Source: a virus
Strand: one strand, 5' to 3'
DNA: 22,213 bases
UHGV virus genome: UHGV-0117651
How positions within the stretch are numbered: position 1 is the stretch's first letter; every line of letters starts with the position of its first letter. Of the stretch, positions 1 through 15,070 are shown in pieces. Under the pieces are notes generated by a model. It was not told the origin of the DNA, did no database searches, and saw nothing but the letters and a program-made list of their open reading frames with translations. Both the position numbers and the translations under genes were made by a program.

Positions 1-99
1 GGCATCGAGGACCGGTTCGGCCAGTCCGGCACGCCCGCGGAGCTGTTTGCAGACTACGGCCTGACAGCGGAGAACATTGCCGAAAACGCCCGCCGCCTG

Positions 100-2814
100 A
101 TGGGGCAGTTTGGTGACTCCATCCAGCGAACGCAGGGGGCGATCAAAAATCTCGAGCGTCAGGCGCGTTCATTTGAGCGCGCCCGCGACGCTGTCAGTAA
201 AGCGGATGCGGGTATCGTGAAAGCACGACGCCAGCTTAACGCCCTTAATCAGTTACAACGCACGGGTACAGTGCTCAGCGAAAAACAACAAAAGCTGATG
301 CAGCAGTTAAGCAGCCGGCTTGAACGCCTGAATGAATCGCGCACACGGGAAATTCAGAAAATGCGGGAACTTGGCGGAGAGCTGAAACGCCACGGCATTT
401 CCCTGACAGGCAGCGATAACACCATCCAGCAGGCCATCAGACGCACCGAACAGTACAACAACCAGCTTGAACGCGAACGGCAGGCGCTTGCGCGTGTAAC
501 GCGGGCGCGTGAGCGGTATTCGCGCGCGCAGGAAACCGCGGGAAAACTGAAAACAGGTGGTGCGCTGGCAATTGGTGCTGCAGCGGCTGGCGGCTATGCT
601 GCCGGGCGTTTTTTGCAGCCTGCGATCGGGTTCGGCAAAGAGATGTCCCGCGTTCAGGCACTGACGCGAATCGACAAAAACAGCCCGCAGTTTAAGGCGC
701 TGCGTGAGCAGGCGTTAAAACTTGGTTCTGAAACACAGTTTACTGCGAGTGATGCCGCCAGTGGGCAGAGCTTTCTGGCAATGGCTGGTTTTACTCCGCA
801 GGCCATTCAGGCCGCATTGCCCGGTGTTCTTAATATGGCGCTGGCAGGTGGCGTCGAACTCGGCGAGACGGCTGATATAGGCTCCAATATCCTCACACAG
901 TTCAACCTGACAGCCGATCAAATGGACCGGGTTGGCGATACGCTGACAGCAGCATTCACCCGGACCAATACTGATTTACGCGCGCTGGGCGAAACCATGA
1001 AGTATACCGGTCCGGTTGCCGCAAAACTTGGTATCAGTCTTGAAGAAGCGGCGGCCATGGCCGGGATGCTTGCCAATAATGGTCTTCGCGGAAGCGATGC
1101 TGGTACGGCCATGCGCGCAAGTCTGTCCCGCCTTGCATCACCGCCAAAAGCTGCGGCTGATGCACTGAAAGAGCTGGGGGTGTCAGTTGCTGACGCCAGA
1201 GGCAAAATGCGCCCGATGGAGGATGTGCTGCTTGATCTCTATAAGGCGACACAAAAATACGGACAGGTGGACCAGGTCTCCTTCTTCAAGGACATCGCCG
1301 GAGAAGAGGCGTTCGTTGGTTTGCAGACGCTTGTTGCGGCGGCTGGTTCAGGAGAACTGCAAAAACTGACCAGAGAATTGCAGGGGGCAAGGGGAGAGGC
1401 CGATCGCGTTGCAAAAGTAATGGCCGATAATCTTGATGGAGACCTGAAAAATCTCGACAGCGCATGGGAAGGTCTTCGTATTCGCATCAGTGATCTGGTT
1501 GACGGTCCGCTGCGTTCTGTCACGCAGTGGCTCACGCGGGTGCTTGAAAAAATCACCTCGCTGGCGCAGGCCCATCCGGTACTGACGCGCCAGCTACTGA
1601 TAGCAGGCGGTGCGTTGCTGGCAATGACTGCAACGATTGGCTCGTTGTCGCTGGTTATTGGGGTGCTTTACGGGAAGCTGGCCACCTTGCGTCTTACCCG
1701 GTCAATGAATGTCATCAGGGTGTTGCCTGCGCTGTGGGGAATGGTGACGGGTTCTGTTTCTTTGCTGGGAGGAGCTATCGGGGCGCTGTTCAGTCCGGTT
1801 AGTCTTATCGTGGCTGCGCTTGCCGGCGCTGCCGTTCTTATCTGGAAATACTGGGATCCCATCAGGGCATTTTTTGCCGGGGTGTTCAGCGGGATTATGG
1901 AAAGGCTGAACCCGTTGCGTGAAACCTTTGAACGGTTTGGCCCTGTTTTTGACGCAATCGGAAGCGGGATCAGCCAGGTGTTTAACTGGTTTAAATCGCT
2001 GCTGTCACCGATGGAGTCCAGCAAGGAAACGCTGGATAAATGTACCAGTGCTGGCGAGATATTCGGTAACGTTCTTGGTGGCGCGTTACAGCTTGTTCTG
2101 ACGCCTGCAAAAATGTTGCTGGATACGCTGGCGTGGATACTTGAAAAACTCGGTGTTCTTCCGGATGAAGCGGAAAGGGCGAGAAAGAAAATCGAAGACG
2201 CACAGCGTGCGGCCATTCTTCAGGACAAGGTTGCCTTACTTCAAGGGGACCTGGCGAAAATCAATCCGCCGAAGCCTGTGGAAAATGGCAATGGCACCGG
2301 AGGTGATAAACCCAAAGACAACAAACCGCTCACAGACAGCAATACCGGGACGCTACGCAGACTCAGCAAAATTGCTGATAACACAGGTAAGCTGGTTGAG
2401 GAGACGAAAAAACGCATTGGCCCCGGCGATATTGTCTTTAAAAACCTGCCCCGAGCACTTGCTGTTCGTGGGGAGTGGCAGGAGCGGAAGATTGCGCAGG
2501 CCAGTAAGCCTGCCCCCGCAATTAATATCACACCCGTGGTCCCGGCTCCGCTGCCTCCGGCGCTGGTCCCTGCTGTTGCGGCCAGCTCCCGCCCGGTGGC
2601 GGAGGCCATACGATCTCCAGTGGCATCAGTTCCTGTAACTTCCCGTAACCGGGAGCCTGTTGCCTCCGGATTTGGTGGTGAAATTCATGTTCATCTGCAT
2701 AACGTTGTTACACAGAATCCCCGCGAACTGGCGAAACTGGTCGGTGAAATGGTCAGGGCAGAGATGGAACGGCGCGCCCGTGCCGGGCGTGGCAGTTTTT
2801 ACGATAAAGATTGA
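100..2814 (+). CDS. T: Phage tail tape measure protein (P2 gpT-like). The reading frame is open from window position 1, so the true start may lie upstream or overlap an E' frameshift product.
   Basis: 904-aa ORF, Ala/Gly-rich and coiled-coil-like at the N-terminus with a hydrophobic central segment, typical of tape measure proteins. It sits immediately upstream of a gpU homolog. A GGAG ribosome-binding site for the next gene lies at its 3' end. Family assignment is by eye. Confidence 0.8.
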   Translation: MGQFGDSIQRTQGAIKNLERQARSFERARDAVSKADAGIVKARRQLNALNQLQRTGTVLSEKQQKLMQQLSSRLERLNESRTREIQKMRELGGELKRHGISLTGSDNTIQQAIRRTEQYNNQLERERQALARVTRARERYSRAQETAGKLKTGGALAIGAAAAGGYAAGRFLQPAIGFGKEMSRVQALTRIDKNSPQFKALREQALKLGSETQFTASDAASGQSFLAMAGFTPQAIQAALPGVLNMALAGGVELGETADIGSNILTQFNLTADQMDRVGDTLTAAFTRTNTDLRALGETMKYTGPVAAKLGISLEEAAAMAGMLANNGLRGSDAGTAMRASLSRLASPPKAAADALKELGVSVADARGKMRPMEDVLLDLYKATQKYGQVDQVSFFKDIAGEEAFVGLQTLVAAAGSGELQKLTRELQGARGEADRVAKVMADNLDGDLKNLDSAWEGLRIRISDLVDGPLRSVTQWLTRVLEKITSLAQAHPVLTRQLLIAGGALLAMTATIGSLSLVIGVLYGKLATLRLTRSMNVIRVLPALWGMVTGSVSLLGGAIGALFSPVSLIVAALAGAAVLIWKYWDPIRAFFAGVFSGIMERLNPLRETFERFGPVFDAIGSGISQVFNWFKSLLSPMESSKETLDKCTSAGEIFGNVLGGALQLVLTPAKMLLDTLAWILEKLGVLPDEAERARKKIEDAQRAAILQDKVALLQGDLAKINPPKPVENGNGTGGDKPKDNKPLTDSNTGTLRRLSKIADNTGKLVEETKKRIGPGDIVFKNLPRALAVRGEWQERKIAQASKPAPAINITPVVPAPLPPALVPAVAASSRPVAEAIRSPVASVPVTSRNREPVASGFGGEIHVHLHNVVTQNPRELAKLVGEMVRAEMERRARAGRGSFYDKD

Positions 2815-2820
2815 GGAGTC

Positions 2821-3315
2821 ATGGCCATGATGATGATCTATGGCATGTTTGTTTTTGAGCTGCGCACGTTGCCGCATCAGCAGTTACAGCAAAACAAAAG
2901 CTGGCGGCACGTGAAAAATGAACGCGTTAACCGTTCAGCAAGCTGGCAGTATATCGGGGCAGGCGATGATCGCATCGTTCTTTCTGGTGTGCTTTATCCT
3001 GAAATTACAGGTGGCGAAGTGTCGCTTTCGTTGCTGACCTCGCAGGCATATACAGGACGCCCCTGGCCTCTGATTGATGGTGTCGGGCAGATTTACGGCA
3101 TGTATGTCCTGACCGGAACGAATACGACCCGCTCCGAGTTTGATCGCTACGGTAAGGCGAAAAAGATAGAATTTTCACTGACTCTTGAACGCTGTGATGA
3201 GGATTTGCGGGAGCGCCTGCAATCCTCATCGTTCAGTGATATGCTGTCCGGCTTCAAAGATAAGGTCACATCATCCCTTAACAGCGCGGCCAGCTCCGTT
3301 AAAGGGCTGTTTTGA
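2821..3315 (+). CDS. U: Phage tail protein gpU (P2 family)
   Basis: 164-aa ORF starting MAMMMIYGMFVFELRTLPHQ, which resembles the P2 gpU N-terminus as recalled from memory. GGAG lies 7 nt upstream of the ATG. It directly follows the tape measure gene as in P2. Confidence 0.8.
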   Translation: MAMMMIYGMFVFELRTLPHQQLQQNKSWRHVKNERVNRSASWQYIGAGDDRIVLSGVLYPEITGGEVSLSLLTSQAYTGRPWPLIDGVGQIYGMYVLTGTNTTRSEFDRYGKAKKIEFSLTLERCDEDLRERLQSSSFSDMLSGFKDKVTSSLNSAASSVKGLF

Positions 3316-3322
3316 TTAACGC

Positions 3323-3352
3323 AAAACCGCTAATGGTCAGATTAGCGGTTTT
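3323..3352. terminator. Bidirectional intrinsic terminator between gpU (+) and the invertase (-)
   Basis: Perfect 12-bp inverted repeat AAAACCGCTAAT / ATTAGCGGTTTT with a 6-nt loop. A-run on the 5' side and T-run on the 3' side, so it forms a hairpin followed by a U-tract on both strands. Confidence 0.6.
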
Positions 3353-3941
3353 CATTTTCCTGAGTCTGCCTGGTTGTTTCTTCAGCCTGTATATCGCCTA
3401 CAGGGTGATAACGATAAATCGTCGATATGCCGATGTCGTAAATGATCGCCAGTTGTTTCCTGTCATGACCGTTTTTAATCAGCCTCGCTATTTGCTCGTG
3501 TTGTTCTTTTGTCAACTTCGGGCGACGTCCGCCAATGCGTCCTTGTGCGCGTGCTGCTGCCAGCCCGGCCAGTGTACGCTCTACAATTAATTCACGTTCC
3601 ATTTCGGCTAAAGCCCCCATGACGTGAAAAAAGAAACGCCCCATGGGTGTTGATGTGTCAATGCTGTCCGTCAGACTACGGAAATTAACACCTTTTTCCC
3701 GCAATTCCTCAATAAGCGTGATCAGGTGTTTCATACTTCTGCCCAGTCTGTCCAGCTTCCAGACAACCAGCGTATCTCCTTCTGATAGCGTTCTGAGCAG
3801 TTTTTTCAATCCCGGTCTGGCTGATTTCGTTCCGCTGATTTTATCTTCAAAAATCAGTTCACATCCTGCGCAGTTCAGTGCATTGCGTTGTAAATCCGTG
3901 TTCTGGTCATTTGTTGACACACGAATATAGCCAATTTGCAT
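3342..3941 (-). CDS. Site-specific DNA invertase, serine recombinase of the Hin/Gin/Cin/Pin family
   Basis: Translation from the ATG at 3941 gives MQIGYIRVSTNDQNTDLQRNAL...VVWKLDRLGRSMKHLI...GRFFFHVMGALAEMERELIVERTLAGLAAARAQGRIGGRRPKL, with a C-terminal helix-turn-helix. This closely matches the Hin/Gin sequences as I recall them. AGAGGA lies 8 nt upstream of the ATG. The ORF track start at 4136 is an upstream extension. Confidence 0.9.
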   Translation of the reverse strand: MQIGYIRVSTNDQNTDLQRNALNCAGCELIFEDKISGTKSARPGLKKLLRTLSEGDTLVVWKLDRLGRSMKHLITLIEELREKGVNFRSLTDSIDTSTPMGRFFFHVMGALAEMERELIVERTLAGLAAARAQGRIGGRRPKLTKEQHEQIARLIKNGHDRKQLAIIYDIGISTIYRYHPVGDIQAEETTRQTQENENR

Positions 3942-3955
3942 AAAAAACATCCTCT

Positions 3956-4519
3956 TTGTTTCGTGAAAAATACATAGTTGGTATAGGTAGGGATAAAAAC
4001 GAAAACGTTGGTTTGGGGGAAGGTTCTGCGCTGCCTGTTGGTGTGCCCGTTCCGTGGCCCTCAGCAACACCACCAACGGGCTGGCTGAAATGTAACGGCG
4101 CAGCATTTTCTTCTGAAATGTATCCCGGACTGGCAAAGGCTTACCCCACCAATAAATTACCGGATTTACGGGGTGAATTTATTCGTGGCTGGGATGATGG
4201 ACGTAGTGCGGATGCGGGGAGAACAATATTATCCGCTCAAGGTGATGCCATACGTAATATCTATGGTGAGTTCAAGACTGTAAACACTGAAAATTATTCA
4301 ATATGGGAATCAGTAGGCTCGTTTAAGGGGGCAGTGGTGCCTTTAAATTCCTCAACAAACAATAGTTATTTCTCCTTAGTCAGAAGTATGGTGACAGAAA
4401 GGACAGACGGCGCTGTTTACCCAAAAGTGATTGGCCTTGATGCTTCAAAAATTGTTCCAACTGCAAACGAAAACCGCCCACGCAACATTGCGTTTAATTA
4501 CATCGTAAGGGCAGCATGA
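3956..4519 (+). CDS. Tail-fibre C-terminal variable cassette 1 (phage tail-collar domain). No canonical start; the frame is open through the crossover site, as expected for a promoterless segment.
   Basis: Encodes GEGSALPVGVPVPWPSATPPTGWLKCNGAAFSSEMYPGLAKAYPTNKLPDLRGEFIRGWDDGR, which fits the tail-collar motif pattern (P-x-GWL-x-C-x-G, LPDLRG). It ends ...PRNIAFNYIVRAA then stop, a typical fibre terminus. Confidence 0.65.
   Translation: MFREKYIVGIGRDKNENVGLGEGSALPVGVPVPWPSATPPTGWLKCNGAAFSSEMYPGLAKAYPTNKLPDLRGEFIRGWDDGRSADAGRTILSAQGDAIRNIYGEFKTVNTENYSIWESVGSFKGAVVPLNSSTNNSYFSLVRSMVTERTDGAVYPKVIGLDASKIVPTANENRPRNIAFNYIVRAA
3996..4021 (+). other. Candidate invertase crossover site 1 (gix/hix-like), at the 5' edge of cassette 1
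   Basis: AAAACGAAAACG-TT-GGTTTGGGGGAA, with imperfect dyad symmetry AAACG/TT/GGTTT. It resembles the gix sequence as I recall it. The right half and central dinucleotide recur unchanged at 4513-4538 and 5028-5053. Confidence 0.5.
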
Positions 4520-4538
4520 AAACGTTGGTTTGGGGGAA
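4513..4538 (+). other. Candidate invertase crossover site 2
   Basis: GAAAACGTTGGTTTGGGGGAAGG, identical to the site 1 core, placed immediately after the stop codon of cassette 1. Confidence 0.5.
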
Positions 4539-5033
4539 GGTTCTGCGCTGCCTGTTGGTGTGCCCGTTCCATGGCCCTCAGCCACACCACCAACGGGCTG
4601 GCTGAAATGCAATGGTGCAGCATTTTCTTCTGAAATGTACCCCAAACTGGCAAAAGCCTACCCCGCAAATAAATTACCGGATTTACGGGGAGAATTTATT
4701 CGCGGCTGGGATGATGGGCGCGGGGTGGATGCTGGCCGCGCTTTGCTTAATTGGCAGCCACACACAATTTTGGATCATGCACACTATATGGAATTATGGA
4801 CCGGGAACGGACTTGCCGTGGAAAGTGCACGGGAAGGATTAAACCCTGGAATACTGGCTACATACGGGGACGGGGGAATAGTTAAAACAGACGAACCCGG
4901 TTTAAGGGTGCCTTCCTCACTACGAGCCATTAGCTCTCGTAATGTAAAACGGTTTGGTGAAATTAGTGGAAATGTAGGTACAGAAACTCGCCCTCGCAAC
5001 GTTGCATTCAATTACATCGTAAGAGCCGCATGA
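4530..5033 (+). CDS. Tail-fibre C-terminal variable cassette 2 (tail-collar domain)
   Basis: The first ~60 residues are near-identical to cassette 1 and the remainder diverges. It ends ...ETRPRNVAFNYIVRAA then stop. Confidence 0.65.
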   Translation: MGEGSALPVGVPVPWPSATPPTGWLKCNGAAFSSEMYPKLAKAYPANKLPDLRGEFIRGWDDGRGVDAGRALLNWQPHTILDHAHYMELWTGNGLAVESAREGLNPGILATYGDGGIVKTDEPGLRVPSSLRAISSRNVKRFGEISGNVGTETRPRNVAFNYIVRAA

Positions 5034-5053
5034 AAACGTTGGTTTGGGGGAAG
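5028..5053 (+). other. Candidate invertase crossover site 3
   Basis: The same conserved block, immediately after the stop codon of cassette 2. Confidence 0.5.
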
Positions 5054-5604
5054 GCTCTGCACTGCCCGTTGGTGTGCCTGTTCCATGGCCCTCAGCCACA
5101 CCACCAACGGGCTGGCTGAAATGTAACGGTGCAGCATTTTCTTCTGAAATGTATCCCGGACTGGCAAAGGCTTACCCCACAAATAAATTACCGGATTTAC
5201 GCGGAGAATTTATCCGTGGCTGGGATGATGGGCGAGGAATTGATGCGGCACGCGCTTTATTGAGCATTCAAAACGGGATGTTGGAAAAACACCGCCATAT
5301 TGTTGTAGCTAACGATGGATATGACACAAAAGATGAATGGGAGTTGGCTACGATTTTCAAAAAAACATATACACAAGGCAGGGGGCTTGATGCCACAAAT
5401 ACAGGAGGGAGTTTGATTCCATCATCGCCACGACGTCAGGTAACGCTACATCGGTATACAGATAAATTCCCAGACCGAACTGGTTGTTGGTCAGTGCGCC
5501 TGACAGTCGAAACTTACAGCTCAGTCTGCCACCCCGTGTCAGCAGGGAGACTGCGTCATCCACCGGATGCATCAGGGACCAAGTTTTATTGCTCTGCTTG
5601 GTAA
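5044..5604 (+). CDS. Tail-fibre C-terminal variable cassette 3 (tail-collar domain). The 3' end is atypical or degenerate and overlaps the antisense ORF on the - strand.
   Basis: Conserved N-terminal block, then a divergent region that keeps a Q...H-x-H pattern (SIQNGMLEKHRHIVV). It lacks the NYIVRAA terminus of cassettes 1 and 2. Confidence 0.45.
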   Translation: MGEGSALPVGVPVPWPSATPPTGWLKCNGAAFSSEMYPGLAKAYPTNKLPDLRGEFIRGWDDGRGIDAARALLSIQNGMLEKHRHIVVANDGYDTKDEWELATIFKKTYTQGRGLDATNTGGSLIPSSPRRQVTLHRYTDKFPDRTGCWSVRLTVETYSSVCHPVSAGRLRHPPDASGTKFYCSAW

Positions 5605-6560
5605 CCTTAAACACACCATCTTCCAGCGCAACACTGCCGCCGGTGATGGTCCAGCCCTGCGCAGCAGCCTCTCCGGCTGTCGGCAGCAGGGAGACTGTAC
5701 GAACGGATGTGTCACCATCAGACGGCCCCGATGGAGTGTCGCCGCCGGGCGAGGGTTTGATTTCCGGTGCGGTACCGCTGATGAAGGCGCTGGTTCGACC
5801 AACTGCGTTCAGAATAGCGGTTGCCAGGCGATCCGAAATAATGCCCCTGCGCGCCCATGAACTGAAATGTGTCGGACGATTTGACGATACCCAATTACCA
5901 TTACTACGGGATTGCGCGCCGTAATAACCTGCATCAGCAATATCCGGGTCTTCTGCCGGTAAGTTGGTGGGCGTGTTGTTGCCGTTACCGTCGGTCATGA
6001 ACGGCACAAAGAAAACGTTGTCGCTCTCCCTGTTTTTGTACGCGCCGTAGACGGAGTCATACTGTGTGCCGTATGTGTTTTTCCAGTAATACGTCGTGTC
6101 GCCACAAATCCACGGTATAACTGCAGCACTGCCGCCATGGCACTGCGCGTTAAATCCGGAAAGGTCAGTACGGAACTGCTTCAGCATGGCCGTGAACAGG
6201 TCCGGTTGCTGTGCGTAGGTGGCAGCGCTCATGTCAAATTCGCCCTGCATCCAGCACACCGCCAGCAACACATTTTTCGGGTTCTTCTGTAATGCCGCTT
6301 TGGTGCGTGCGATCAGGTCCTGATATAACGGCTTACCCGCACCCCAGCGCGCCGAATCCTGGCTGGCCCCCGTGGTCGTACTGAATGTTCCCTCCGCGCC
6401 CTGAGTGAATGCCGAACCACCACGACAGCATGGTACCAGCAGGATCCCCGCGTTATTCGGGATATACGGGAGTAGTTTTTTGGCAATATGAAGTCCCTGT
6501 CCCACACAGCCGTACTGACCTTTGCTCAGGTCCGCCTTCGGATGATTCAGCGTACTCATA
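5357..6560 (-). CDS. SGNH/SASA-family hydrolase-like protein (sialate O-acetylesterase-like), possibly a receptor-modifying or receptor-binding tail accessory protein. The C-terminal ~80 codons overlap cassette 3 on the other strand, so the true 3' end is uncertain.
   Basis: Translation from the ATG at 6560 begins MSTLNHPKADLSKGQYGCVGQG. Blocks LLVPCCRGGSAF, VCWMQGEFD and THFSSWARRGI resemble the conserved blocks of the sialate O-acetylesterase domain as I recall them, but the expected GQSN serine motif is not obvious. The start ATG overlaps the stop of truncated gpL as ATGA. Confidence 0.45.
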
Positions 6561-6828
6561 CCGGAACATCGGCCAGCGTCTGATGGCCAGCCGCCTGCTG
6601 TTCCTGCTGCCACGCTTCCAGTTCGCGGGTAACGTGAGCCACGGCCCCAGTGGCGGTATGCAGCAGGCGGGAGGTGGTCACGCGGCCCGGCAGTCGTACC
6701 GCCAGACGCAGCTCGCGCAGCACAATATCCGGCCAGAATGCACCTGCTGAAATGCGAGTGTCGCCATCATCGGTATCGGTGATGTCGTCCTCTGCGGGTC
6801 CTGGTTCAGTTCTGGCAACCATACTCAT
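6556..6828 (-). pseudogene. L: Capsid completion protein gpL, N-terminal ~90 codons only (truncated)
   Basis: MSMVARTE...AFWPDIVLRELRLAVRLPGR...EAWQQEQQAAGHQTLADVPV resembles the gpL N-terminus (FFFPDIDPKRVRERMRLEQ...REQKIAAGFTRLADVPADD, recalled from memory). The ORF stops right after LADVPV, where P2 gpL as I recall it continues for ~80 more residues. GGAG lies upstream of the ATG at 6828. Confidence 0.6.
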
Positions 6829-6842
6829 GGAGTTCACTCCTG

Positions 6843-6907
6843 AAAAAAAATCGGGCGGTGGGTGCGCGGTGTAAACGGTCACGGAGTCAAACCGGAACAC
6901 CGCGCAC
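6843..6907 (-). terminator. Hairpin plus U8 tract between gpM and gpL' (possible attenuator or terminator)
   Basis: 10-bp inverted repeat GTGCGCGGTG (6862-6871) / CACCGCGCAC (6898-6907). On the - strand it is followed ~11 nt later by a run of eight T. The spacing is not optimal for a terminator. Confidence 0.3.
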
Positions 6908-6931
6908 GCCGCCCGCTGACGGGGTCAGTCG

Positions 6932-7732
6932 TTAACCGCGCTTCGCCTTCTGCGACGCGGTGGTTTTTCGTGTTGCAGGCTTCTGCGTTGTCTTTTTACT
7001 TTTGCTGCTTTCGTCCTGCGTCTGCTGTGCGCTGGCGTCTTCTGGTGCGGCTGCGGAATCGGCTTTTTTCAGGGCGCGGGAAAGGGTTGCAATCTCGCGT
7101 TTCACACCTGCGTTCGGGTTCAGGTGCATCGCTTCGCGCAGCAGCTTCAGTGATGAGGCCATGTTGTCTGCATCGGTCAGGCCACGACGGGCAAAGGCAC
7201 ACGCCTTGCATAATTTGGCGCGCACTTCGTCCGGCATGTCCTGGTTGGCGACAATTTCCCAAAGTGTGTCCAGTGGTTCGATAAAGGCGGATAAATCCGC
7301 GTCGGCATCCGTCCCGGCCTGCGTCAGTACCGGGTTGCAGATTTCTTCGGTCAGTACCGTGGCAGCAGTACGGCCAAAGTTATCCGGCATGATGAGGTTG
7401 TGACGGACCACATATGCACCAATACGCAGCGCCAGCGGAAGATCGCCGCAGTCAATCGCCCACACCATCAGCGTGGCAATTACTTCGTCCTGTTGCCCGC
7501 CGTCAGTCTCCAGCGTTCCCTCAATCCAGCCGGAAAAGTCCGGCAACAACTCTTTTTTGATGGCGGCTTTCGCGCTTCTGGCCTGTACGCCCTTTAGCCT
7601 GGCCTGTGCCAGACGCAGACGATACAGCACCTCTTCATGCGCGGTACGCGCGGCGTGGTCCACACCTTCATTCGCCCGGCCTGCGCGCTGTGCCATCACG
7701 TTCTGCCAGTGTTGTTGTGCAGGAGTAATCAT
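6932..7732 (-). CDS. M: Terminase endonuclease (small) subunit gpM
   Basis: 266-aa ORF in the expected position after the major capsid gene. GGAGAG ribosome-binding site. Lys/Thr-rich C-terminal tail. Assigned by synteny and size to the P2 gpM family. Confidence 0.8.
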   Translation of the reverse strand: MITPAQQHWQNVMAQRAGRANEGVDHAARTAHEEVLYRLRLAQARLKGVQARSAKAAIKKELLPDFSGWIEGTLETDGGQQDEVIATLMVWAIDCGDLPLALRIGAYVVRHNLIMPDNFGRTAATVLTEEICNPVLTQAGTDADADLSAFIEPLDTLWEIVANQDMPDEVRAKLCKACAFARRGLTDADNMASSLKLLREAMHLNPNAGVKREIATLSRALKKADSAAAPEDASAQQTQDESSKSKKTTQKPATRKTTASQKAKRG

Positions 7733-7777
7733 TTTTTCTCTCCGTTACAGGCGGGCATGATGCCCGCCGTGAGTTGA

Positions 7778-8830
7778 TTAGCTGTCGGCGAACTTCAGGC
7801 CAGTGATCATCGCGCACTTGCCATAGTCTTCAACGACATAAGCGTCATTGATGGACTGGTAGGTGGCGATGCGGTTGTATTCCGGCTCGTCTTTCATCAG
7901 GCGACGCATTGAACCTTTCTGCCAGTAAATCGACAGGTTGTTGAACGAGGTGATAAGCATCGTTGCATCCGGGAAGAACGGCGCAAGGAACACGCCCAGC
8001 CCGCCAATGGTGCGCGATGACAGGATGAGCTGCCCGGCAAGTAATTCCGCATTGGGATTCTGGCCGCTGATGCTGTTCAGCACGGGCAGACGCAGCGAGT
8101 TAAACAGGTTGCGCCCCATAATCACCGCGAGGTCGTCAGCTTCCTTGTGCCATTCATCCAGCAGGGATGAGCGCGCATCCTGTACCAGAGCATCGGCATT
8201 CGCATACTTACCCGCGTGCGCCACAGTGTTGTCCATGTTGCGGGAGGTCAGCGTCACGTCATTCATTACGCGCTCGCTGGCATCGGTTCTGATGTGCTCC
8301 AGCCAGCCCACGTTAACGTCCTGAAGCAGCTTGTTGGTGTGAAAATCAGACTCGTAGGCGTGGGATGTGCCGTTAAAGCCAATCATGATGCGATCAAGCG
8401 CTACCTGCCGGGCGATCTGTGTACTGATACGGGACTGAAAATCGCTGTGGGCCGCCCAGGTATCAAGCTGTGGGTACGAAATAAAGGTATCGTAGTTCAC
8501 CTGTTCGCACTGGTACTGACGAGACTTCATATCGATCACGTTATTCGGGTTACGGCGTTTGATGCCGTCATAACTGCTATTCGTGCGCGCAATTGGCCCG
8601 GTGGTGTCCAGGAGGATTTTTTCGCCTTTCTGGTCGGTCACGCCGATCACGTTAATTCTTTTCGTAAATTCGGTACTTTCCTTTGAGGCGTTTTCAAAAC
8701 GCTGCTGCACCGCGGGTTCCACGGTAAATCGCGATACCAGTGCAGATACCGGGATATTGTTAAGCGACGCCTGCTGCGCCATATAGCAACCCAGCTTGTT
8801 GCGGGTAATATCTGACATCACCAGATTCAT
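7778..8830 (-). CDS. N: Major capsid protein gpN
   Basis: 350-aa ORF. Several segments (TVEPAVQQ, IMIGFNGTS, VGWLEHIR, VIMGRNLF, MLITSFNNLSIYWQ, YVVEDYG) resemble P2 gpN as I recall it. A hairpin GGCGGGCAT-G-ATGCCCGCC lies between N and M. Confidence 0.85.
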   Translation of the reverse strand: MNLVMSDITRNKLGCYMAQQASLNNIPVSALVSRFTVEPAVQQRFENASKESTEFTKRINVIGVTDQKGEKILLDTTGPIARTNSSYDGIKRRNPNNVIDMKSRQYQCEQVNYDTFISYPQLDTWAAHSDFQSRISTQIARQVALDRIMIGFNGTSHAYESDFHTNKLLQDVNVGWLEHIRTDASERVMNDVTLTSRNMDNTVAHAGKYANADALVQDARSSLLDEWHKEADDLAVIMGRNLFNSLRLPVLNSISGQNPNAELLAGQLILSSRTIGGLGVFLAPFFPDATMLITSFNNLSIYWQKGSMRRLMKDEPEYNRIATYQSINDAYVVEDYGKCAMITGLKFADS

Positions 8831-8853
8831 AAAAAATTTGCTCCTTTGTCTTA

Positions 8854-9690
8854 TCAGAAGTCAGCCAGCTGGTCGGAGGCTGCGCCCGTTGCGGTGAAGC
8901 GGTTCTGCGGATCGCCGTCCTGCGTGCGCAGTTTTTCCTTCAATGCTGCCAGCTCTGTGGTCAGTGACGTGATTTTCTGGCGGTCCTGCTGATGGCGGGT
9001 TTCCAGCACATTAAAACGGTCGATAATGTCGGCCTGTGACGTTGCAACGCCTTCCACCGCTTCCTGAATTCGGGAGAAACTGGCGTCATCCGCTTTGCGT
9101 CCACGACCAATAATCCCCATTACGCGGTTAAACCACTGGGTGCCTTCTTCCTGGCGTTGTTCTGCCATTTCGATGATTTCAGACTCGATGGCTTCGGAGA
9201 TAAGCGGTGCTTCACCCTGGATACTGTTGAACGTCATCACCGCCTGACGTTGCTGTGCCGTGAATTTCAGGCGCTCAGTGCCCAGGCTTGCCGGGGTGTC
9301 GGTCATCGCCAGCCCGACCAGATAGGCGCGCCCGTTAACGGAGAACTGCGGGTGCAGTTCGATACTGGAATAGATTTTCTTGCCGTCAGCGACAAGCTGC
9401 TTCATGCGCTCGGTCGGTTCGATTTCTGCATACAGCGCAGTACGTCCGGCCAGCGGGCCTTCCGTAATATCTTCCGTACTCAGCGCGGTGACATCGCCCA
9501 TTGCGGAAAATTCGCTTGACGGGCATGGCGAGAGATAGTGCTCAACGTTCACGCGGGCAGCGTAAACATCCGGGTTGAAGTTCTCGGCGGCTTCACGCAG
9601 ATGTACCTGGCTGATTTCGCGGCCATCAACAGTTGATCCGGAGACAGCCACGCGAAACTTTTTGCGGGATGTCTTTTTTTCATTAGCCAT
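8854..9690 (-). CDS. O: Capsid scaffolding protein gpO
   Basis: Resembles P2 gpO as recalled (KKFRVAVSGSTVDGREIS, YLVGLAMTDTPASLGTE). The start is chosen at ATG 9690 (MANEKK), which has GAGGGG 9 nt upstream. The ORF track start at 9723 is an in-frame extension. Confidence 0.85.
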   Translation of the reverse strand: MANEKKTSRKKFRVAVSGSTVDGREISQVHLREAAENFNPDVYAARVNVEHYLSPCPSSEFSAMGDVTALSTEDITEGPLAGRTALYAEIEPTERMKQLVADGKKIYSSIELHPQFSVNGRAYLVGLAMTDTPASLGTERLKFTAQQRQAVMTFNSIQGEAPLISEAIESEIIEMAEQRQEEGTQWFNRVMGIIGRGRKADDASFSRIQEAVEGVATSQADIIDRFNVLETRHQQDRQKITSLTTELAALKEKLRTQDGDPQNRFTATGAASDQLADF

Positions 9691-9723
9691 AGTTTTTGCC
9701 CCTCTGACTGGTTCTTCAGTCAT

Positions 9724-9844
9724 GATGGCAAAGCGTAACAGGCTGATACAAAGGGCTTTTGTTGTAAGAAAACGGCCAGAACAGGGGGTTAAGGAGAACG
9801 GTTTCGCGCGCGGGTAATCTTCCTGTAATTACTCAGGGGGAGCA
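9724..9844. promoter_or_regulatory. Divergent late promoter region between gpO (-) and gpP (+)
   Basis: 121-bp intergenic region between divergently transcribed head and terminase genes, equivalent to the P2 late promoters for O and P. It contains TGT...ACA elements (for example TGTAAGAAAACGGCCAGAACA), but the spacing does not clearly match the TGT-N12-ACA activator site recalled for Ogr-type activators. Confidence 0.4.
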
Positions 9845-11596
9845 ATGATTCAGGACGCTTTTGTGCGCCAGCGTGCGCGGCAACTTTACTGGCAGGGTTA
9901 TCCGCCCGCAGAAATATCACGTCTGATGGGAATAAACCCGAACACGATTTATGCGTGGAAAAAACGCGACCAGTGGGATGAAACGCCACCCGTGCAGCGT
10001 GTCACGCAGTCCATCGATGCGCGCCTCATCCAGCTTACTGAAAAACAGAATAAAACAGGCGGTGACTTTAAGGAAATTGACCTGCTGACCCGGCAGCTTA
10101 AAAAAATGCATGATGGCCAGCCGGATGCGACGGCCACAGGAAAGAAAGGCCGGGCGAAAAAACTCAAAAATCATTTCACGCCGGAACAGATTGCCGCACT
10201 GCGGGAAAAAATCATCAGCAGGCTGGAGTGGCATCAGCGGGGCTGGTTTGACTCCCTGACCCTTTGCAGGGAAGCCGGGATACGTAACAGGATGATCCTG
10301 AAATCCCGACAGATTGGCGCGACCTGGTATTTTGCACAGGAAGCACTGCTGATGGCGCTGCGTGACGATGTGGCGCAACCTTACCAGCGTAACCAGATTT
10401 TTTTGTCTGCGTCGCGTCGTCAGGCGTTCCAGTTTAAAAGCATTATTCAGAAGGCTGCGGCTGAAGTTGATGTGGAGCTGAAAGGGGGCGATAAAATCAT
10501 CCTCTCCAACGGCGCAGAGCTGCATTTTCTCGGCACTTCTGCTGCGTCGGCGCAGTCCTATACGGGCAATTTTTATTTTGATGAATTTTTCTGGGTCAGT
10601 CGCTTTGCTGAACTGCGCAAGGTGGCTGGCGCTATGGCAACCCTCAGCGGATTGCGGCGCACCTACTTCTCCACGCCATCCACCGAAACGCACGAAGCAT
10701 ACGCCTACTGGAACGGCGACCGCTGGAACGAGAAAAAGGCCACACATAAACGCCAGCGTTTTTCTGTGGACTGGAAAACACTGCATAACGGGCTTATCTG
10801 CCCTGACCGGACGTGGCGGCAAATTGTCACGCTGGAAGATGTGGTTAATCACGGCTGGAAACACACCGATATCGACGAAATTCGTGATGAAAACACCGAA
10901 GACGAGTTCCTCAATCTCTATATGTGTGAGTTTGTCCGCGAAGGGGAATCGGCATTTAACCTGAATATCCTGATTGGCTGCGGTGTTGACGGATACGACG
11001 ACTGGAAAGACTGGAAACCTTTTGCTCCCCGCCCGATGGGGAATCGTCCGGTATGGATTGGGTATGACGCAAACGGCAGCAGTGGCAACGGCGACAGCGG
11101 CGCTGTGTCCGTGGTGGTTCCTCCGGCTGTTCCTGGTGGCCGTTTTCGAACGGTGGAGACGCGACGCGTTCAGGGGCTGGAGTTTGAAGAACAGGCCAGA
11201 GTCATTGAAGATTTCACGTATCGCTACAACGTGGAACACATCGGCATTGATGTGACGGGCGGGAACGGGGAGGCTGTTTATCAGATAGTGAAACGGTTTT
11301 TCCCTGCCGCTATTCCGTACACCTTCACGCTGTCATCAAAACGGTCGCTTGTACTGAAAATGCTGCAAATAATGCGTGCCGGGCGGTGGGAATACGATCG
11401 CGCCGAACGCGAGCTGGTCGCGGCCTTTAACGCCGTGCGTAAGGTGAAAACACCGGGCGGCTTTATCACTTACGAAACGGACCGCGCGAGGGGGATCAGC
11501 CACGGCGACCTTGCGTGGGCAACCATGCTTGCTGTCATTAACGAACCAATTGGCGGCGAAGGAGAAAACGAGCGTTTCACGGTTATGGAGTTCTGA
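9845..11596 (+). CDS. P: Terminase large (ATPase) subunit gpP
   Basis: 583-aa ORF. Its size and position upstream of the portal gene match the P2 gpP family. Strong GGGGGAG ribosome-binding site. Confidence 0.85.
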   Translation: MIQDAFVRQRARQLYWQGYPPAEISRLMGINPNTIYAWKKRDQWDETPPVQRVTQSIDARLIQLTEKQNKTGGDFKEIDLLTRQLKKMHDGQPDATATGKKGRAKKLKNHFTPEQIAALREKIISRLEWHQRGWFDSLTLCREAGIRNRMILKSRQIGATWYFAQEALLMALRDDVAQPYQRNQIFLSASRRQAFQFKSIIQKAAAEVDVELKGGDKIILSNGAELHFLGTSAASAQSYTGNFYFDEFFWVSRFAELRKVAGAMATLSGLRRTYFSTPSTETHEAYAYWNGDRWNEKKATHKRQRFSVDWKTLHNGLICPDRTWRQIVTLEDVVNHGWKHTDIDEIRDENTEDEFLNLYMCEFVREGESAFNLNILIGCGVDGYDDWKDWKPFAPRPMGNRPVWIGYDANGSSGNGDSGAVSVVVPPAVPGGRFRTVETRRVQGLEFEEQARVIEDFTYRYNVEHIGIDVTGGNGEAVYQIVKRFFPAAIPYTFTLSSKRSLVLKMLQIMRAGRWEYDRAERELVAAFNAVRKVKTPGGFITYETDRARGISHGDLAWATMLAVINEPIGGEGENERFTVMEF

Positions 11597-12642
11597 TGAG
11601 CAGAAAAAATAAAAAAGTGCGCATGAGTTCACGCATTGATCTCGCTGATGCACTCAGGAAAGAATCGTCGCTCAGTGCATTCACTTTTGATGGTCCTTAT
11701 CGCCTGACCGGGCATGATTTGCTGGACAATATGTACTGTGCTGATAACGGGCGGTGGTATGAAACCCCGGTGGACTGGTACGGTCTGGCAAGAGCCGCCC
11801 GGCAAACGTCCTGGCATCAGTCTGCGCTTTACTTTAAGCGCAATGTATTGCTCGGTTGCTACATCCCGCACCCGCTGCTTTCCCGGCAGGATTTCTCGGC
11901 ACTGGCGCTGGACTGGTTTGTGTTCGGTAACGCATTCCTTGAGCTTCGAAGCAATATGCTCGGCGAACCGCTTAAATTACGGCACGCCCTGGCGAAATAC
12001 ATACGACGCGGAAGCGATCTTGAATCATGGTGGTATGTGCAGGATGGCAAGGATGCGTTCCAGTTTCGCCCTGGCAAAGTGTGCCACCTGATGAATCCTG
12101 ACATTAACCAGGAAATCTACGGCATGCCGGAATATCTCGGCGCATTACTCTCGGCCAGCCTGTCTCATTCGGCGGACATGTTCAGAAAACTGTATTACGA
12201 CAACGGATCCCACGCCGGGTGCATCATCTACATCGGTGCAGCGCAGGTAAACCGCGAAAGCATGGACTCTCTGAAAGAAACGCTACAGGGTGCACGTGGT
12301 GGCGGTGCGTTTAAAAACGTGCTCATTCATGCGCCCAACGGGGGCAAAGAGGGGGTGCAAATTTTGCCGTTCCAGCAGATCACCGCAAAGGATGAGTTCA
12401 TGAATGTTAAGGCTGCATCCCGTGATGATGTGCTGGCTGCGCACCGCGTTCCGCCGCAACTAATGGGGGCGATGCCGGGTGAAAAAAGTGCGTTTGGTGA
12501 TGTGGAGAAGGCCGCGCGGGTTTACGCAATTAACGAGCTGATGCCCATCATGGAGGCCATGAAGCACATCAATGACTGGCTTGGCGAAGAGGTGATCCGC
12601 TTTAACCCTTACGCACTGTTAGATACCCAGCTCACATCCTGA
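11596..12642 (+). CDS. Q: Portal (capsid portal vertex) protein gpQ
   Basis: 348-aa ORF whose start overlaps the gpP stop (TGATGA). Size and synteny match P2 gpQ. Confidence 0.85.
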   Translation: MSRKNKKVRMSSRIDLADALRKESSLSAFTFDGPYRLTGHDLLDNMYCADNGRWYETPVDWYGLARAARQTSWHQSALYFKRNVLLGCYIPHPLLSRQDFSALALDWFVFGNAFLELRSNMLGEPLKLRHALAKYIRRGSDLESWWYVQDGKDAFQFRPGKVCHLMNPDINQEIYGMPEYLGALLSASLSHSADMFRKLYYDNGSHAGCIIYIGAAQVNRESMDSLKETLQGARGGGAFKNVLIHAPNGGKEGVQILPFQQITAKDEFMNVKAASRDDVLAAHRVPPQLMGAMPGEKSAFGDVEKAARVYAINELMPIMEAMKHINDWLGEEVIRFNPYALLDTQLTS

Positions 12643-12669
12643 CGCGCTTCGCTTGTCTGCTGCTTCGCC

Positions 12670-12691
12670 GGGGCATAAAAAATTTATGCCC
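12670..12691. repeat. Perfect palindrome GGGGCATAAA-AA-TTTATGCCCC, 28 nt past the gpQ stop (hairpin; possible terminator or part of the cos region)
   Basis: Read directly from the sequence. In P2 the cos site lies about 100 bp beyond the end of Q. Confidence 0.35.
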
Positions 12692-13094
12692 CGACTCTCC
12701 AGCTCCTGTATCAGTCAGATAATTTCACGACGCTTTACAGTATATCGCCACCATCGACGGTCAGACTCTTACGCAATCCCACCGCGTTGACTGCATGTTC
12801 TTCGCCGCCTCAGTGCGATTTTGACGGCCTTACCTTTCACCCCATCAAATCAGAATCCCTCACGTATTTTTCACGCTCAGCGTGAGAAATACAGCCATTC
12901 TGTTGTGTCTCTGCGACATCGTTCAGGGAATGCTATTTACCCCCTGAAACGCGGGCTGTTCCCCCGTCACCTGCGCGTAGAAAAAACGCGTTTTTTGTGC
13001 ACGTACGGATCCTTGACGGATCCAGCCGCCACGCGGGCCGGAAGTACAAAAAGTCGTTCAAAAAAATTGTGCAAACTTGTGCACTATCGTGCAA

Positions 13095-13121
13095 ACAAAA
13101 AAAAGCGCCTTATCGGCGCTT
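13095..13121 (-). terminator. Intrinsic terminator for the small - strand ORF
   Basis: AAGCGCC-TTATC-GGCGCTT stem-loop. On the - strand it is followed by a run of eight T. It lies 9 nt after the stop of ORF 13130-13399. Confidence 0.6.
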
Positions 13122-13129
13122 CAAAAATA

Positions 13130-13399
13130 TCAATTGTTGCTGTGTATTAATCGCCAACCACGAACATATGCTTCATAGGCATCTCTGTGCCTTACAGTTC
13201 CAGCCTGGCTAAACGGAATGTTAGCTAAAACTAAATCATTCTGAGCCATAGCGCGTCCTTCAAGCGCATCTTTTATGCCTAGCTCAAAAGCACAGGCAGC
13301 GCATTTGTGCCGACCTTCTTGTCCTTGATATTCAGGGAGAGACAGAAATGTTGGGTTATAACGATGAGGGTTCTTGCAAATACCTGTTTTAGCCCGCAC
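13130..13399 (-). CDS. Hypothetical small protein (89 aa, GTG start)
   Basis: GAGG lies 8 nt upstream of the GTG at 13399 and a strong terminator lies just after the stop. No recognisable family. Contains Cys at C8, C33 and C36. Confidence 0.4.
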   Translation of the reverse strand: MRAKTGICKNPHRYNPTFLSLPEYQGQEGRHKCAACAFELGIKDALEGRAMAQNDLVLANIPFSQAGTVRHRDAYEAYVRGWRLIHSNN

Positions 13400-13420
13400 T
13401 TTATTTACCTCATAGGAAAA

Positions 13421-13501
13421 ATATGCGTGCCTTTACAGAGGTGCGTGTAAGCAATAAAATATACGACGCACATTTTGATTTACTTCGGAAGGCACGCATA
13501 T
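13421..13501. repeat. 13-bp perfect inverted repeat ATATGCGTGCCTT / AAGGCACGCATAT with a 55-bp spacer
   Basis: Read directly from the sequence. It lies just upstream (in - strand terms) of the ribosome-binding site of the small ORF. The spacer holds a second imperfect dyad, GTGCGTG...ACGACGCAC. Confidence 0.45.
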
Positions 13502-13530
13502 CAGGTTAAGTGAGTCCGACCGAGTTTTAC

Positions 13531-13563
13531 GCCCCAATAGTTGCTGCTATTGGGGCGTTTTGC
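13531..13563 (+). terminator. Intrinsic terminator on the + strand (GCCCCAATAG-TTGCTG-CTATTGGGGC, then GTTTTGC)
   Basis: Perfect 10-bp stem with a 6-nt loop and a T-tract on the + strand only. No + strand coding gene ends here, so it may terminate a small noncoding transcript. Confidence 0.45.
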
Positions 13564-13763
13564 ATGGACAATGCCGCGCAATTATCTTGTCGCTCACAAT
13601 GCGAACGATCTTACAAAAAGGCACATTACTGTCAAGATAATTGATCGTTTTAATCGATAGATAATAGACAATCTATTTGTTTAACAGATCGATTATTGAA
13701 GTAAGTGTGCCAAATGGAATGATACTGTTTCTATAAATGTGAGCATTTTTCGCGCAGATGCTT

Positions 13764-14075
13764 TTACTCAGGAAATAACGCCCGGATATTCCCAGCCATC
13801 TGGCTGGTTATCTTAGCCACTGGTGCAGACTGTGCTTCAAACTTTTTTGAGCTGATTTGTGTCACAGGTAAAATCTCATCATCAGCCCATGCGGTCAGTC
13901 GGTAAGCCTCTGCCGGATTCGTCTTCAGAAGTGCCAGCCCGGCCAGAAAAGCCACGCGTTGGCCGCTTTTGCGGGCTTCTGGTGTAAGGCTGTCCAGCCA
14001 GGCGCATGCTTCTCCTTCGTTCTTGACGGCAGCTGGCTTCAGATAGAAACTTATTCTTCTGGTTGGTGTCGTCAT
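13764..14075 (-). CDS. parR: Plasmid partition adaptor ParR (StbB-like)
   Basis: 103-aa ORF immediately after parM with a 4-nt gap. Its N-terminal region (ISFYLKPA...LDSLTPEARKSGQRVAFLAGLALL) resembles R1 ParR as I recall it. Confidence 0.7.
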   Translation of the reverse strand: MTTPTRRISFYLKPAAVKNEGEACAWLDSLTPEARKSGQRVAFLAGLALLKTNPAEAYRLTAWADDEILPVTQISSKKFEAQSAPVAKITSQMAGNIRALFPE

Positions 14076-14079
14076 TGGT

Positions 14080-15039
14080 TTACTCCTTGTTCATTGCGTA
14101 CAGCCCATTAACCAGAGCAAACTGTGGCACCCCGTCCGCGATGAAAGTCGCATTAACTCCGCAGGCTTCGCGGATAGCGGGTGCCACAATCTCCGCCCCG
14201 CCACCGACAACCATCACCCGCCCGTAACCGGAAAAACCCGCCAGCGCGCGGATCACTCGTTGTTTCAGTGTCTCCTCCTTTTCACGAATAACCGCCATCA
14301 GGCTGTTGTAATGCGCGTCATTGTGAATGTGCTGGCGCAGCCAGGCTTCATCGTGACGGTGCTCAATAATGGTATTGGCGATGTGGTGACTGGTACGCAT
14401 ACCGTTAGTGGCCATCACCGACAGCACGGCATCAGCCATCAGGGAAACGCCTACGTGTGGATCGCAAAACACCTGGCTGATACCTGCCAGCTGCCCCTGA
14501 ACCTTTGCCACATCCAGCGTGGTTCCGCCCAAATCCACAATCAGCAGGGATTCAAACGGACTCATGTCAGCCAGTGCCTTAAAGCCAGCCGGAATGGATT
14601 CAGGCATAACCCGCACGTTACGGATAGTGAATGCTTCGCCGTTCTGGTACTCCACCGGGCGCATAACGTTCGCTTTTTTGCGGTTGATGTTGGCTATGTC
14701 CGGCTGTGCGTTTGTGTCGAAATACTCGCTCAGTGGCAGGGTGACAACCACATCCACCTCCTGTGGCGTGATGCCTGATTTGACCAGCGCGTGATGAATG
14801 GCAATGACATTCACATCACTGTACTGGTATTGCGTGTCGGTCGTCTGGACAAAGCGATCGCTGACCGGATCAAAACCATAGCGCACGCCATCAAGCATGT
14901 AGTTCGCGGGCTGCGTGCCACCGAACGGCGCAGACCATTCCGACTTGAAGCTGTTCGGGCTGATGGCGTTGCGGCGTTCGCCGTTCTCAGTCCATGCCAG
15001 CTTGATGTTGGTGGAGCCGTCGTCAATACAAATTTTCAT
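14080..15039 (-). CDS. parM: Actin-like plasmid segregation ATPase ParM (StbA)
   Basis: MKICIDDGSTNIKLAW, ISPNSFK, YSDVNVIAIHHAL, LLIVDLGGTTLDV, GFSGYGRVMVVGGGAEI and LVNGLYAM closely match the R1 ParM motifs as I recall them. AAGGA ribosome-binding site. Confidence 0.9.
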   Translation of the reverse strand: MKICIDDGSTNIKLAWTENGERRNAISPNSFKSEWSAPFGGTQPANYMLDGVRYGFDPVSDRFVQTTDTQYQYSDVNVIAIHHALVKSGITPQEVDVVVTLPLSEYFDTNAQPDIANINRKKANVMRPVEYQNGEAFTIRNVRVMPESIPAGFKALADMSPFESLLIVDLGGTTLDVAKVQGQLAGISQVFCDPHVGVSLMADAVLSVMATNGMRTSHHIANTIIEHRHDEAWLRQHIHNDAHYNSLMAVIREKEETLKQRVIRALAGFSGYGRVMVVGGGAEIVAPAIREACGVNATFIADGVPQFALVNGLYAMNKE

Positions 15040-15070
15040 GTCGCTTTTCCTTATGTTGATTAATTAATCG

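Follow-up and report, generated by a model that had tools for sequence, protein, structure and literature searches.

In the stretch of DNA analysed here (the window; 22,213 nucleotides at the end of a gut-metagenome contig of 310 kb overall), two blocks of P2-like late genes run head to head: T and U on the + strand and a truncated L (L′), M, N and O on the − strand meet at an invertase, tail-fibre cassettes and an esterase fragment. How did this layout arise, and could the element that carries it still make a phage? The layout had been described in an initial annotation and was recovered by Pfam and PHROG scans and by tblastn with proteins of the closest intact prophage, from which all gene identities below derive. 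We propose, with a probability of about 0.9, that the window represents a P88-type E. coli prophage (genus Xuanwuvirus, family Peduoviridae) in which the opposed gene blocks are ancestral and two microhomology deletions have occurred in this copy.

Gene plans of P2 and of P88-type prophages

The annotation took P2 (Peduovirus P2) as its template, and the P2 record bears out that the late genes of that phage are co-directional: the F operon FI-FII-E-E′-T-U-D, with its own promoter and activator site, runs in the direction of the O and V operons (O...G) and has D after U. P2 shares with the window homologous head genes (Q, P, O, N, M and L) and tail genes (T and U), and in both Q and P diverge from O-N-M-L. 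However, P2 has neither an invertase nor fibre cassettes, and in the window U is followed by the convergent invertase rather than by D; tblastn detected no D anywhere in the window, as the annotation had said of the position after U.

For the P88 genus P2 is the wrong reference, and what resembles an inversion is how genomes of this common E. coli prophage genus are normally arranged. P88 (NC_026014) and its relatives 500465-2, 503458, 520873, P884B11 and Citrobacter phiSM have the same order and orientation as the window, with int-C-cox...A-parM, Q and P facing O-N-M-L, and an inverted tail operon FI...T-U converging on the invertase. Identity between P88 and the window is 84–96% at the nucleotide level across ~78% of the window, in five collinear blocks (~17.4 of 22.2 kb), a genus-level similarity for the part of the genome that the window holds. 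In P88 and in the intact E. coli prophages HD12481 and AR_0013, T-U likewise converge on the invertase against O...H-G, and D is divergent from FI. The window taken together with a sister contig (L007), which carries both of the junctions described below and E′, E, FII, FI and D upstream, displays this plan of FI...T-U opposite O...H-G with D and ogr beyond FI, the ogr of L007 lying beyond the stretch of that contig retrieved. The absence of FI, FII, E, E′, D and ogr from the window is due to the contig end and nothing else.

In the P88 genus FI-FII-E-E′-T-U forms a separate transcription unit on the strand opposite to the genes for head, lysis, baseplate and fibres (O-N-M-L-X-lysis-R-S-V-W-J-I-H-G); both converge on the invertible cassette region and invertase, and D and ogr are located beyond FI. 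Because the tail block is natively opposed in the genus, the head-to-head layout is probably ancestral and compatible with a working phage. P88 is inducible by mitomycin C, forms plaques and has been seen by electron microscopy (PMC5285337), and its relative phiSM is spontaneously active (PMC6456863).

The genes on either side of the meeting point are well preserved. On the + strand, the tape measure gene T (78–2814; PF10145, phrog_28) covers codons 20–935 with 99.2% identity to the corresponding residues of AR_0013 T; the contig end alone accounts for the loss of its first 19 codons, and T is full length (residues 1–935) in L007. The tail gene U (2827–3315, +; PF06995, Phage_P2_GpU) is intact, with 100% identity over 162 aa. 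Also intact on the − strand are M, the terminase small subunit (6932–7732; PF05944; 100% identity over 266 aa), N, the major capsid protein (7778–8830; 100% over 350 aa), and O, the capsid scaffold (8854–9690; 99.6% over 278 aa). From O diverge, as in P2, the intact + strand genes P, the terminase large subunit (9845–11596; 100% over 583 aa), and Q, the portal (11596–12642; 99.7% over 348 aa).

Two deletions between L and the invertase

The intact prophage AR_0013 (NZ_CP032204), which sits between tRNA-Leu and yecA, is 99.3–100% identical to the window in all four retained collinear blocks and contains the 8,279 bp deleted in the window, including the esterase gene at full length, between lysC and R. 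Where the window has three cassettes AR_0013 has one, silent, and an internal stop interrupts its portal gene. The annotation had put about 10 kb of late genes as absent; the loss is real, but against AR_0013 it comprises two deletions (2,094 + 6,185 bp) rather than one gap of that size, and the net shortfall is 7.2 kb because the window element has two more cassettes.

Base-level alignments and blast coordinates place the first deletion (2,094 bp) at junction A, 6560/6561, where it runs from the middle of L (codon 89) to esterase codon 137 and takes in the 3′ 227 nt of L, X, the holin and endolysin genes, lysB, lysC and the 5′ 410 nt of the esterase gene. The second (6,185 bp; junction B, 5421/5422, read from the window sequence together with the alignment) runs from esterase codon 516 to the middle of silent cassette 3 and takes in the 3′ end of that cassette, G, H, I, J, W, V, S, R and the 3′ end of the esterase gene. 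An imperfect microhomology of ~10 nt (GATGTnCnGG) lies at junction A and one of 3 nt (TCA) at junction B; neither junction falls at a recombinase site or a 23-nt crossover site. The 8,279 bp would therefore, in the reading we favour, have been lost by illegitimate, microhomology-guided recombination, one deletion joining L to a NanS-p-like esterase moron situated after lysC and the other joining that moron to a silent fibre cassette. No intermediate was found, and the two deletions may have arisen separately or in a single complex event.

By tblastn, X, holin, endolysin, lysB, lysC, R, S, V, W, J, I and G are undetectable in the window, L is reduced to residues 1–89 of 164, and H residues 1–358 are absent, leaving C-terminal pieces only. 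Compared with P88, the window is without L residues 90–164, X, the lysis genes, R, S, V, W, J, I, the constant part of H, and G, while it has an esterase fragment absent from P88 and Collar-type cassettes in place of the H′/G′ pair of P88. The element thus falls short of the complete virion and lysis gene set of a functional phage, lacking the C-terminal half of L and the spanins among the rest. From these losses of gene content, it should provide no lysis, baseplate or fibres, and so no virions, although a second, intact prophage may be present in the same cell. The defective element that the annotation offered as one alternative is accordingly the one that the gene losses support, and its statement that the window cannot encode a virion holds, through deletion.

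Several other P88-type prophages are defective in a similar manner. Citrobacter rodentium CRPr20, E. coli CUVET18-789, FDAARGOS_1077 and an L′-FI allele likewise have internal deletions of lysis and tail genes and retain head and replication genes, but with other breakpoints (endolysin to invertase, esterase to I, L to FI), and only the window allele among these has an internal esterase fragment between two joints. The window element is an ordinary defective prophage of the P88 type. Its remaining genes are full length and 99–100% identical to those of an intact relative, which suggests that the decay is recent. The case shows at base resolution how a prophage can decay through microhomology deletions, with lysis and tail genes gone and head, replication and partition genes intact; its value is mainly methodological and its biological import small.

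Alternative readings of the deleted locus

The same preservation could be read another way: the deletion derivative might be a maintained, helper-dependent element that would rely for its packaging and release on a co-resident P2-like phage as the source of L, baseplate, fibres and lysis. Genes for regulation, replication, partition, packaging, head, sheath, tube and tape measure are kept, at full length and with the near-identity to an intact relative just noted, the allele recurs in many samples, and some contigs break at prophage repeat boundaries, a hint that the same cells contain related prophages. Yet the near-identity of copies is compatible with a recent clonal spread in which selection played no part, other contigs have decayed further (N and M are lost in L007 and L013), and the prophage family holds many different deletion alleles, as random decay predicts. 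Satellite-type functions are absent as well: no satellite-type family appeared in Pfam and PHROG scans of the ORFs tested, and genes for portal, terminase, scaffold, capsid and tape measure, along with U, are present in the window, whereas a P4-like phage satellite would have no structural genes of its own and would have dedicated genes for exploiting a helper. We consider helper dependence improbable, and give similarly little credence to its fullest form, a stably carried, host-sparing element that has lost lysis, baseplate and fibre genes, excises, replicates, partitions and packages itself, and spreads with L, tails and lysis taken from co-resident P2-like phages; were that so, the region of L codons 89–90 would be a recurrent deletion hot spot yielding such derivatives.

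Less probable still is that the missing genes reflect an assembly artefact, in which collapsed or misjoined repeats conceal an intact prophage. Contig coverage is low (cov 4.83 in its name), the first 77 nt are demonstrably misjoined, and E. coli genomes contain repeated copies of esterase and cassette sequences. But the microhomologies at the junctions are merely 3 nt and an imperfect ~10 nt, and both junctions occur base for base in contigs from other samples (L007, L009, L011 and L015). The exact 90-aa L′ protein is listed in 29 blocks of public assemblies, of which 24 contigs were read, and the exact 400-aa esterase remnant is present on 7 contigs; the contigs with L′ or the junctions bear differing naming schemes (NODE_, k119_, scaffold, Logan). 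This recurrence across independent assemblies makes junctions A and B biological and not assembly artefacts. A search of 5,426 complete E. coli genomes found neither of them, so that only metagenome and read-archive assemblies document the host lineage.

Least probable of all, and rejected for this element, is the annotation's idea that a large inversion, broken in L and after U and possibly the work of the resident invertase, opposed the two blocks: although P2 itself is co-directional and an invertase gene lies at the meeting point, functional P88 and intact HD12481 and AR_0013 have the same orientation, each junction is a plain deletion joint, collinear with AR_0013 and at a short microhomology instead of a 23-nt crossover site, and L′ runs on into the esterase in the same direction and not into U-T, an order that an L/U inversion would not produce. 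The annotation had itself named functional relatives with this architecture as grounds for refuting its reading, and as regards orientation such relatives exist.

Remnants at the meeting point and the contig end

The deletions of the P88-type prophage left an intact invertase with no inverted crossover-site pair on which to act. The serine DNA invertase (3342–3941, −; 199 aa; phrog_125) is of the Hin/Gin/Cin/Pin type, with a Resolvase catalytic domain (PF00239, E = 3e-51) and an HTH_7 domain (PF02796, E = 2e-12); it matches those of intact prophages and is 100% identical to that of AR_0013. Next to it, three tail-fibre C-terminal cassettes together span ~4001–5421 on the + strand. Cassette 1 (4013–4519; PF07484, phrog_523) is a silent C-terminal cassette with a Collar domain and 58% identity to AR_0013 H residues 378–531; cassette 2 (4530–5033), silent and identified by the Pfam/PHROG scans and tblastn, belongs to the 276-nt direct-repeat family D1; and cassette 3 (5044–5421), its 3′ end cut by deletion 2, keeps residues 1–127 of 158, 100% identical by tblastn to the same residues of the AR_0013 cassette (window 5032–5424 equals L006 20939–21331).

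Each cassette opens with a conserved crossover site, as in the Hin/Gin/Cin/Pin and Min (p15B) systems, in which a serine invertase likewise adjoins alternative fibre C-terminal cassettes. The 23-nt site GAAAACGTTGGTTTGGGGGAAGG has three exact copies in the window, at the cassette boundaries and all on the + strand (4001–4023, at the start of cassette 1, 4518–4540 and 5032–5054), where none would be expected by chance; no copy was found on the − strand anywhere in the window with up to 3 mismatches allowed. In contrast to those systems, the window sites are all direct repeats, and the expressed fibre gene and the inverted site are deleted. Intact HD12481 has four sites on the + strand and two on the − strand, those two lying in its H region, and the window has no such inverted pair with one site inside an expressed fibre gene. 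With only three direct-repeat sites left and the inverted partner inside H lost, the invertase would be orphaned, and with the expressed fibre gene deleted too, switching should no longer be possible.

L′, the truncated head-completion gene (6556–6828, −; PF05926 positions 1–64 of 139), consists of 89 of 164 codons, plus one codon and a stop, with residues 1–89 at 100% identity by tblastn. The NanS-p-like esterase fragment (5422–6560, −) is internal, comprising residues 138–516 of 626 of a DUF1737/SASA/DUF6645 protein (tblastn 100%; 99.7% identical to L006 27514–28663), and can be read as a 400-aa ORF (5357–6559) whose ATG overlaps the stop codon of L′ (ATGA). In the intact protein DUF1737 occupies residues 4–53 and DUF6645 residues 477–587, a pair that the fragment does not hold. 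Nor is its SASA domain complete: residues 1–137 are absent, the Pfam match starts only at profile position 57, and the DNA for VLAGQSNGMAYG, the N-terminal GQSN catalytic-serine block, belongs to the portion of the AR_0013 gene that the window has lost. Because the catalytic serine is lost, the esterase remnant is probably dead.

At the other end of the window, bases 1–77 (+) are not phage DNA. They belong to the 3′ end of a transketolase C-terminal-subunit gene of Ruthenibacterium lactatiformans, fused in frame to phage gene T by an assembly misjoin. A blastn search of window 1–77 against the 5,426 complete E. coli genomes returned zero matches, the alignments of all phage relatives begin only at base 78, and an R. 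lactatiformans sequence (L023) is identical to window 1–99. Misjoined contig ends of this kind call for caution before they are interpreted: the opening 77 bases of a metagenome contig on the 310-kb scale come from an unrelated gut bacterium, by way of a 22-nt chance identity. In a three-way alignment the point of misjoining is the 22-mer TGCCGAAAACGCCCGCCGCCTG (78–99, +), which is common to the Ruthenibacterium gene and phage gene T, and the independent MEGAHIT contig L015 stops 1 nt short of it.

Convergent late genes are native to the P88 genus

Gene calls from the ORF listing and family scans bear out the layout described in the initial annotation, in which T-U on the + strand converge on O-N-M-L′ on the − strand. 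The tape-measure gene T (ORF 100–2814, +; homology from base 78) and an intact U (2827–3315, +) precede a serine invertase of 199 residues (3342–3941, −), three silent Collar-domain fibre cassettes (+; starts at about 4001, 4518 and 5032), a SASA esterase fragment (5422–6560, −; residues 138–516 of 626) and L′, a truncated head-completion gene (6556–6828, −; Pfam positions 1–64 of 139). Beyond these lie intact M (6932–7732), N (7778–8830) and O (8854–9690), all on the − strand, and intact P (9845–11596) and Q (11596–12642) on the + strand. In a tblastn search with all late proteins of the Escherichia coli AR_0013 prophage (L006; NZ_CP032204), U, the invertase, M, N and P are full length and 100% identical.

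This layout had been read as inversion of a P2-type late region with breakpoints in L and after U or, alternatively, as a mosaic or defective element. Megablast of the phage collection identifies the relatives as Escherichia phage P88 and the genus Xuanwuvirus (Peduoviridae), and the T-U-invertase adjacency is present in every P88-genus relative so found. The P88 annotation runs int, C, cox, A, parM, then Q-P facing O-N-M-L-X-lysis-R-S-V-W-J-I-H-G; beyond G come inverted fibre cassettes, the invertase, U-T-E′-E-FII-FI on the opposite strand, and D. The intact E. coli prophages HD12481 and AR_0013 are organized in the same way, and in both ogr follows D. Whereas the late genes of P2 are co-directional, its F operon being served by a promoter and an activator site of its own (P2 record), in the P88 genus the F operon minus D is inverted as a unit. 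Mitomycin C induces P88, which plaques with a burst size of about 65 and shows contractile tails in electron microscopy (PMC5285337); the P88-type Citrobacter phage phiSM is spontaneously active (PMC6456863). Because active P88-type phages and intact prophages share the plan, the inverted F operon is compatible with function. The observed layout thus largely stands, but the inversion reading does not: working relatives have the same architecture, which was already known. Upstream of base 1, where inverted fragments of L had been expected, a contig from another sample (L007) instead carries a normal P88-type tail operon.

Looking for a late promoter belonging to the inverted F operon, we scanned the window and AR_0013 for the P2 late-promoter activator motif TGT-N12-ACA. 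Matches did not exceed the chance level, and neither the O/P nor the D/FI intergenic region contained one. The AR_0013 portal gene (L006 35782–36828) is annotated with an internal stop, so this nearest 'intact' relative may itself be non-functional.

Two deletions separate the window from AR_0013

The alternative of a defective element proved right. Blast aligns the window to AR_0013 in four collinear blocks: window 78–4200 with L006 17001–21138 (99.3% identity), 5032–5424 with 20939–21331 (100%), 5422–6570 with 27514–28663 (99.7%) and 6561–13096 with 30747–37283 (99.8%). In AR_0013 the esterase gene, which encodes 626 residues with DUF1737, SASA and DUF6645 domains, is located between lysC and R. 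At junction A (window 6560/6561), nucleotide 268 of L is fused to nucleotide 411 of the esterase gene across an imperfect microhomology, GATGTnCnGG, in the base-level alignment. The 2,094 bp lost here held the 3′ part of L, X, the holin, the endolysin, lysB, lysC and the esterase 5′ end, including DNA encoding the VLAGQSNGMAYG catalytic-serine block. Junction B (5421/5422) has a 3-nt overlap, TCA, and here esterase codon 516 runs into the middle of one of the silent fibre cassettes; the missing 6,185 bp comprised the 3′ ends of both the esterase gene and the cassette, together with R, S, V, W, J, I, H and G. The tblastn search with the AR_0013 late proteins bears out the gene losses at both junctions. 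The window carries an ordinary P88-type prophage whose decay is recent.

The two deletions are biological. Both junctions are base-identical in four contigs from other samples with other contig-naming schemes (L007, L009, L011 and L015), the exact 90-residue L′ appears in 29 indexed blocks of public assemblies, and the exact 400-residue esterase remnant occurs in 7 public contigs. L007, part of a contig of 387 kb, retains the whole of T, E′, E, FII and FI, and D lies further on. Neither junction occurs in any of 5,426 complete E. coli genomes, among which the best coverage of window 5000–7100 was 55%, from the esterase fragment alone; an exact 33-mer across junction A had no match in a one-genome-per-species search. 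Decay of the two-deletion lineage is still under way. L007 (9813–9950) and a further contig of the same allele, L013, carry the same two deletions plus an additional one that takes M entirely and most of N. In L009, a read-archive contig of this allele, a 542-bp segment within O/N (7517–8058) is inverted, which could reflect either misassembly or a genuine small inversion.

The left end of the window has a different origin. A metagenome contig in ENA (L008; NODE_2_length_310255_cov_4.83) is 100% identical to window 1–16828 and stops at base 1, so the window forms its end. Alignments to all relatives begin only at base 78, and blastn found no match to bases 1–77 in any complete E. coli genome. 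Read in frame with T, these bases give the C terminus of a transketolase subunit, a peptide that a degenerate pattern search located in Ruthenibacterium lactatiformans; window 1–99 is identical to the transketolase C-subunit gene of that species, with bases 1–77 being the gene's 3′ end. The 22-mer TGCCGAAAACGCCCGCCGCCTG is common to the Ruthenibacterium and phage genomes exactly at the switch point, and an independent MEGAHIT assembly of this prophage gives a contig that stops 1 nt before it. The join to T is a misjoin between species in the metagenome assembly, most probably a low-coverage de Bruijn graph artefact rather than a biological fusion. A third deletion fusing a host gene to T is excluded by the Ruthenibacterium identity and the absence from E. 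coli.

Remnant genes and a switch without a target

In translation, L′ comprises 89 native residues and one extra. Its stop codon overlaps an in-frame esterase Met codon (ATGA, window 6556–6559) created by the first deletion, and this ATG opens the 400-residue reading of the esterase remnant. Given the overlap, the remnant could be translated by coupling with L′. It lacks the catalytic block by Pfam and tblastn and is therefore probably inactive.

The same 23-nt site opens each fibre cassette, with three copies on the + strand of the window and none on the − strand, whereas in the intact HD12481 prophage one strand bears four copies and the opposite strand two, which lie inside the fibre gene. 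Since the constant part of H is deleted, the switch is left without a gene to act on and without a site in inverted orientation to pair with. Among contigs sharing both deletions, some hold three cassettes (the window and L008) and others four (L007 and L015); the silent array went on changing after loss of the fibre gene, and we infer that the difference arose by recombination between direct repeats, homologous or invertase-mediated.

The invertase was also considered as the maker of the deletions or of the genus-level inversion. Its crossover site is absent from junctions A and B, and in neither the window nor AR_0013 do sites with up to 3 mismatches lie anywhere but at the cassette starts. 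Because sites are confined to the cassette starts, being absent from the deletion joints and ancestral inversion boundaries alike, there is no evidence for either role. An 18-nt, 78% inverted repeat (I1) touching junction B was judged a chance match.

Decay across P88-type prophages and accessory loci

Prophages of the P88 type abound in E. coli: a single protein from the early region of the window occurs in 31,176 collection blocks. Many copies are decayed, each differently. The endolysin is joined to the invertase in CUVET18-789 and the esterase to I in FDAARGOS_1077, a lineage in 86 blocks joins L′ to antisense FI, and CRPr20 in C. rodentium is another decayed copy. In the L–FI allele (L025 10262–10270), nucleotide 270 of L is joined to antisense FI via the 9-nt microhomology GTTCCGGCA. 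This independent, more widespread allele breaks within 2 nt of junction A (window 6559–6570, L nucleotides 259–270). These nucleotides may be a deletion hot spot; the L–FI allele came from a length-biased protein cluster, and the coincidence may be due to chance.

In the interval separating replication gene A from the portal region, the window encodes a ParM-like actin (319 residues) and a Plasmid_stab_B partner (13764–15039, −), placed as in P88; this P2-like phage, although it integrates, has a partition system of plasmid type. Two Rfam matches above the gathering score, to C4 antisense RNA (18670–18757, −; 83 bits) and to the isrK Hfq-binding RNA (18793–18867, −; 62 bits), lie directly upstream of a gene for a 'derepression protein' (18383–18613, −). 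By these matches, the locus resembles a P1/P7-type c4-ant style immunity module within a P2-like prophage.
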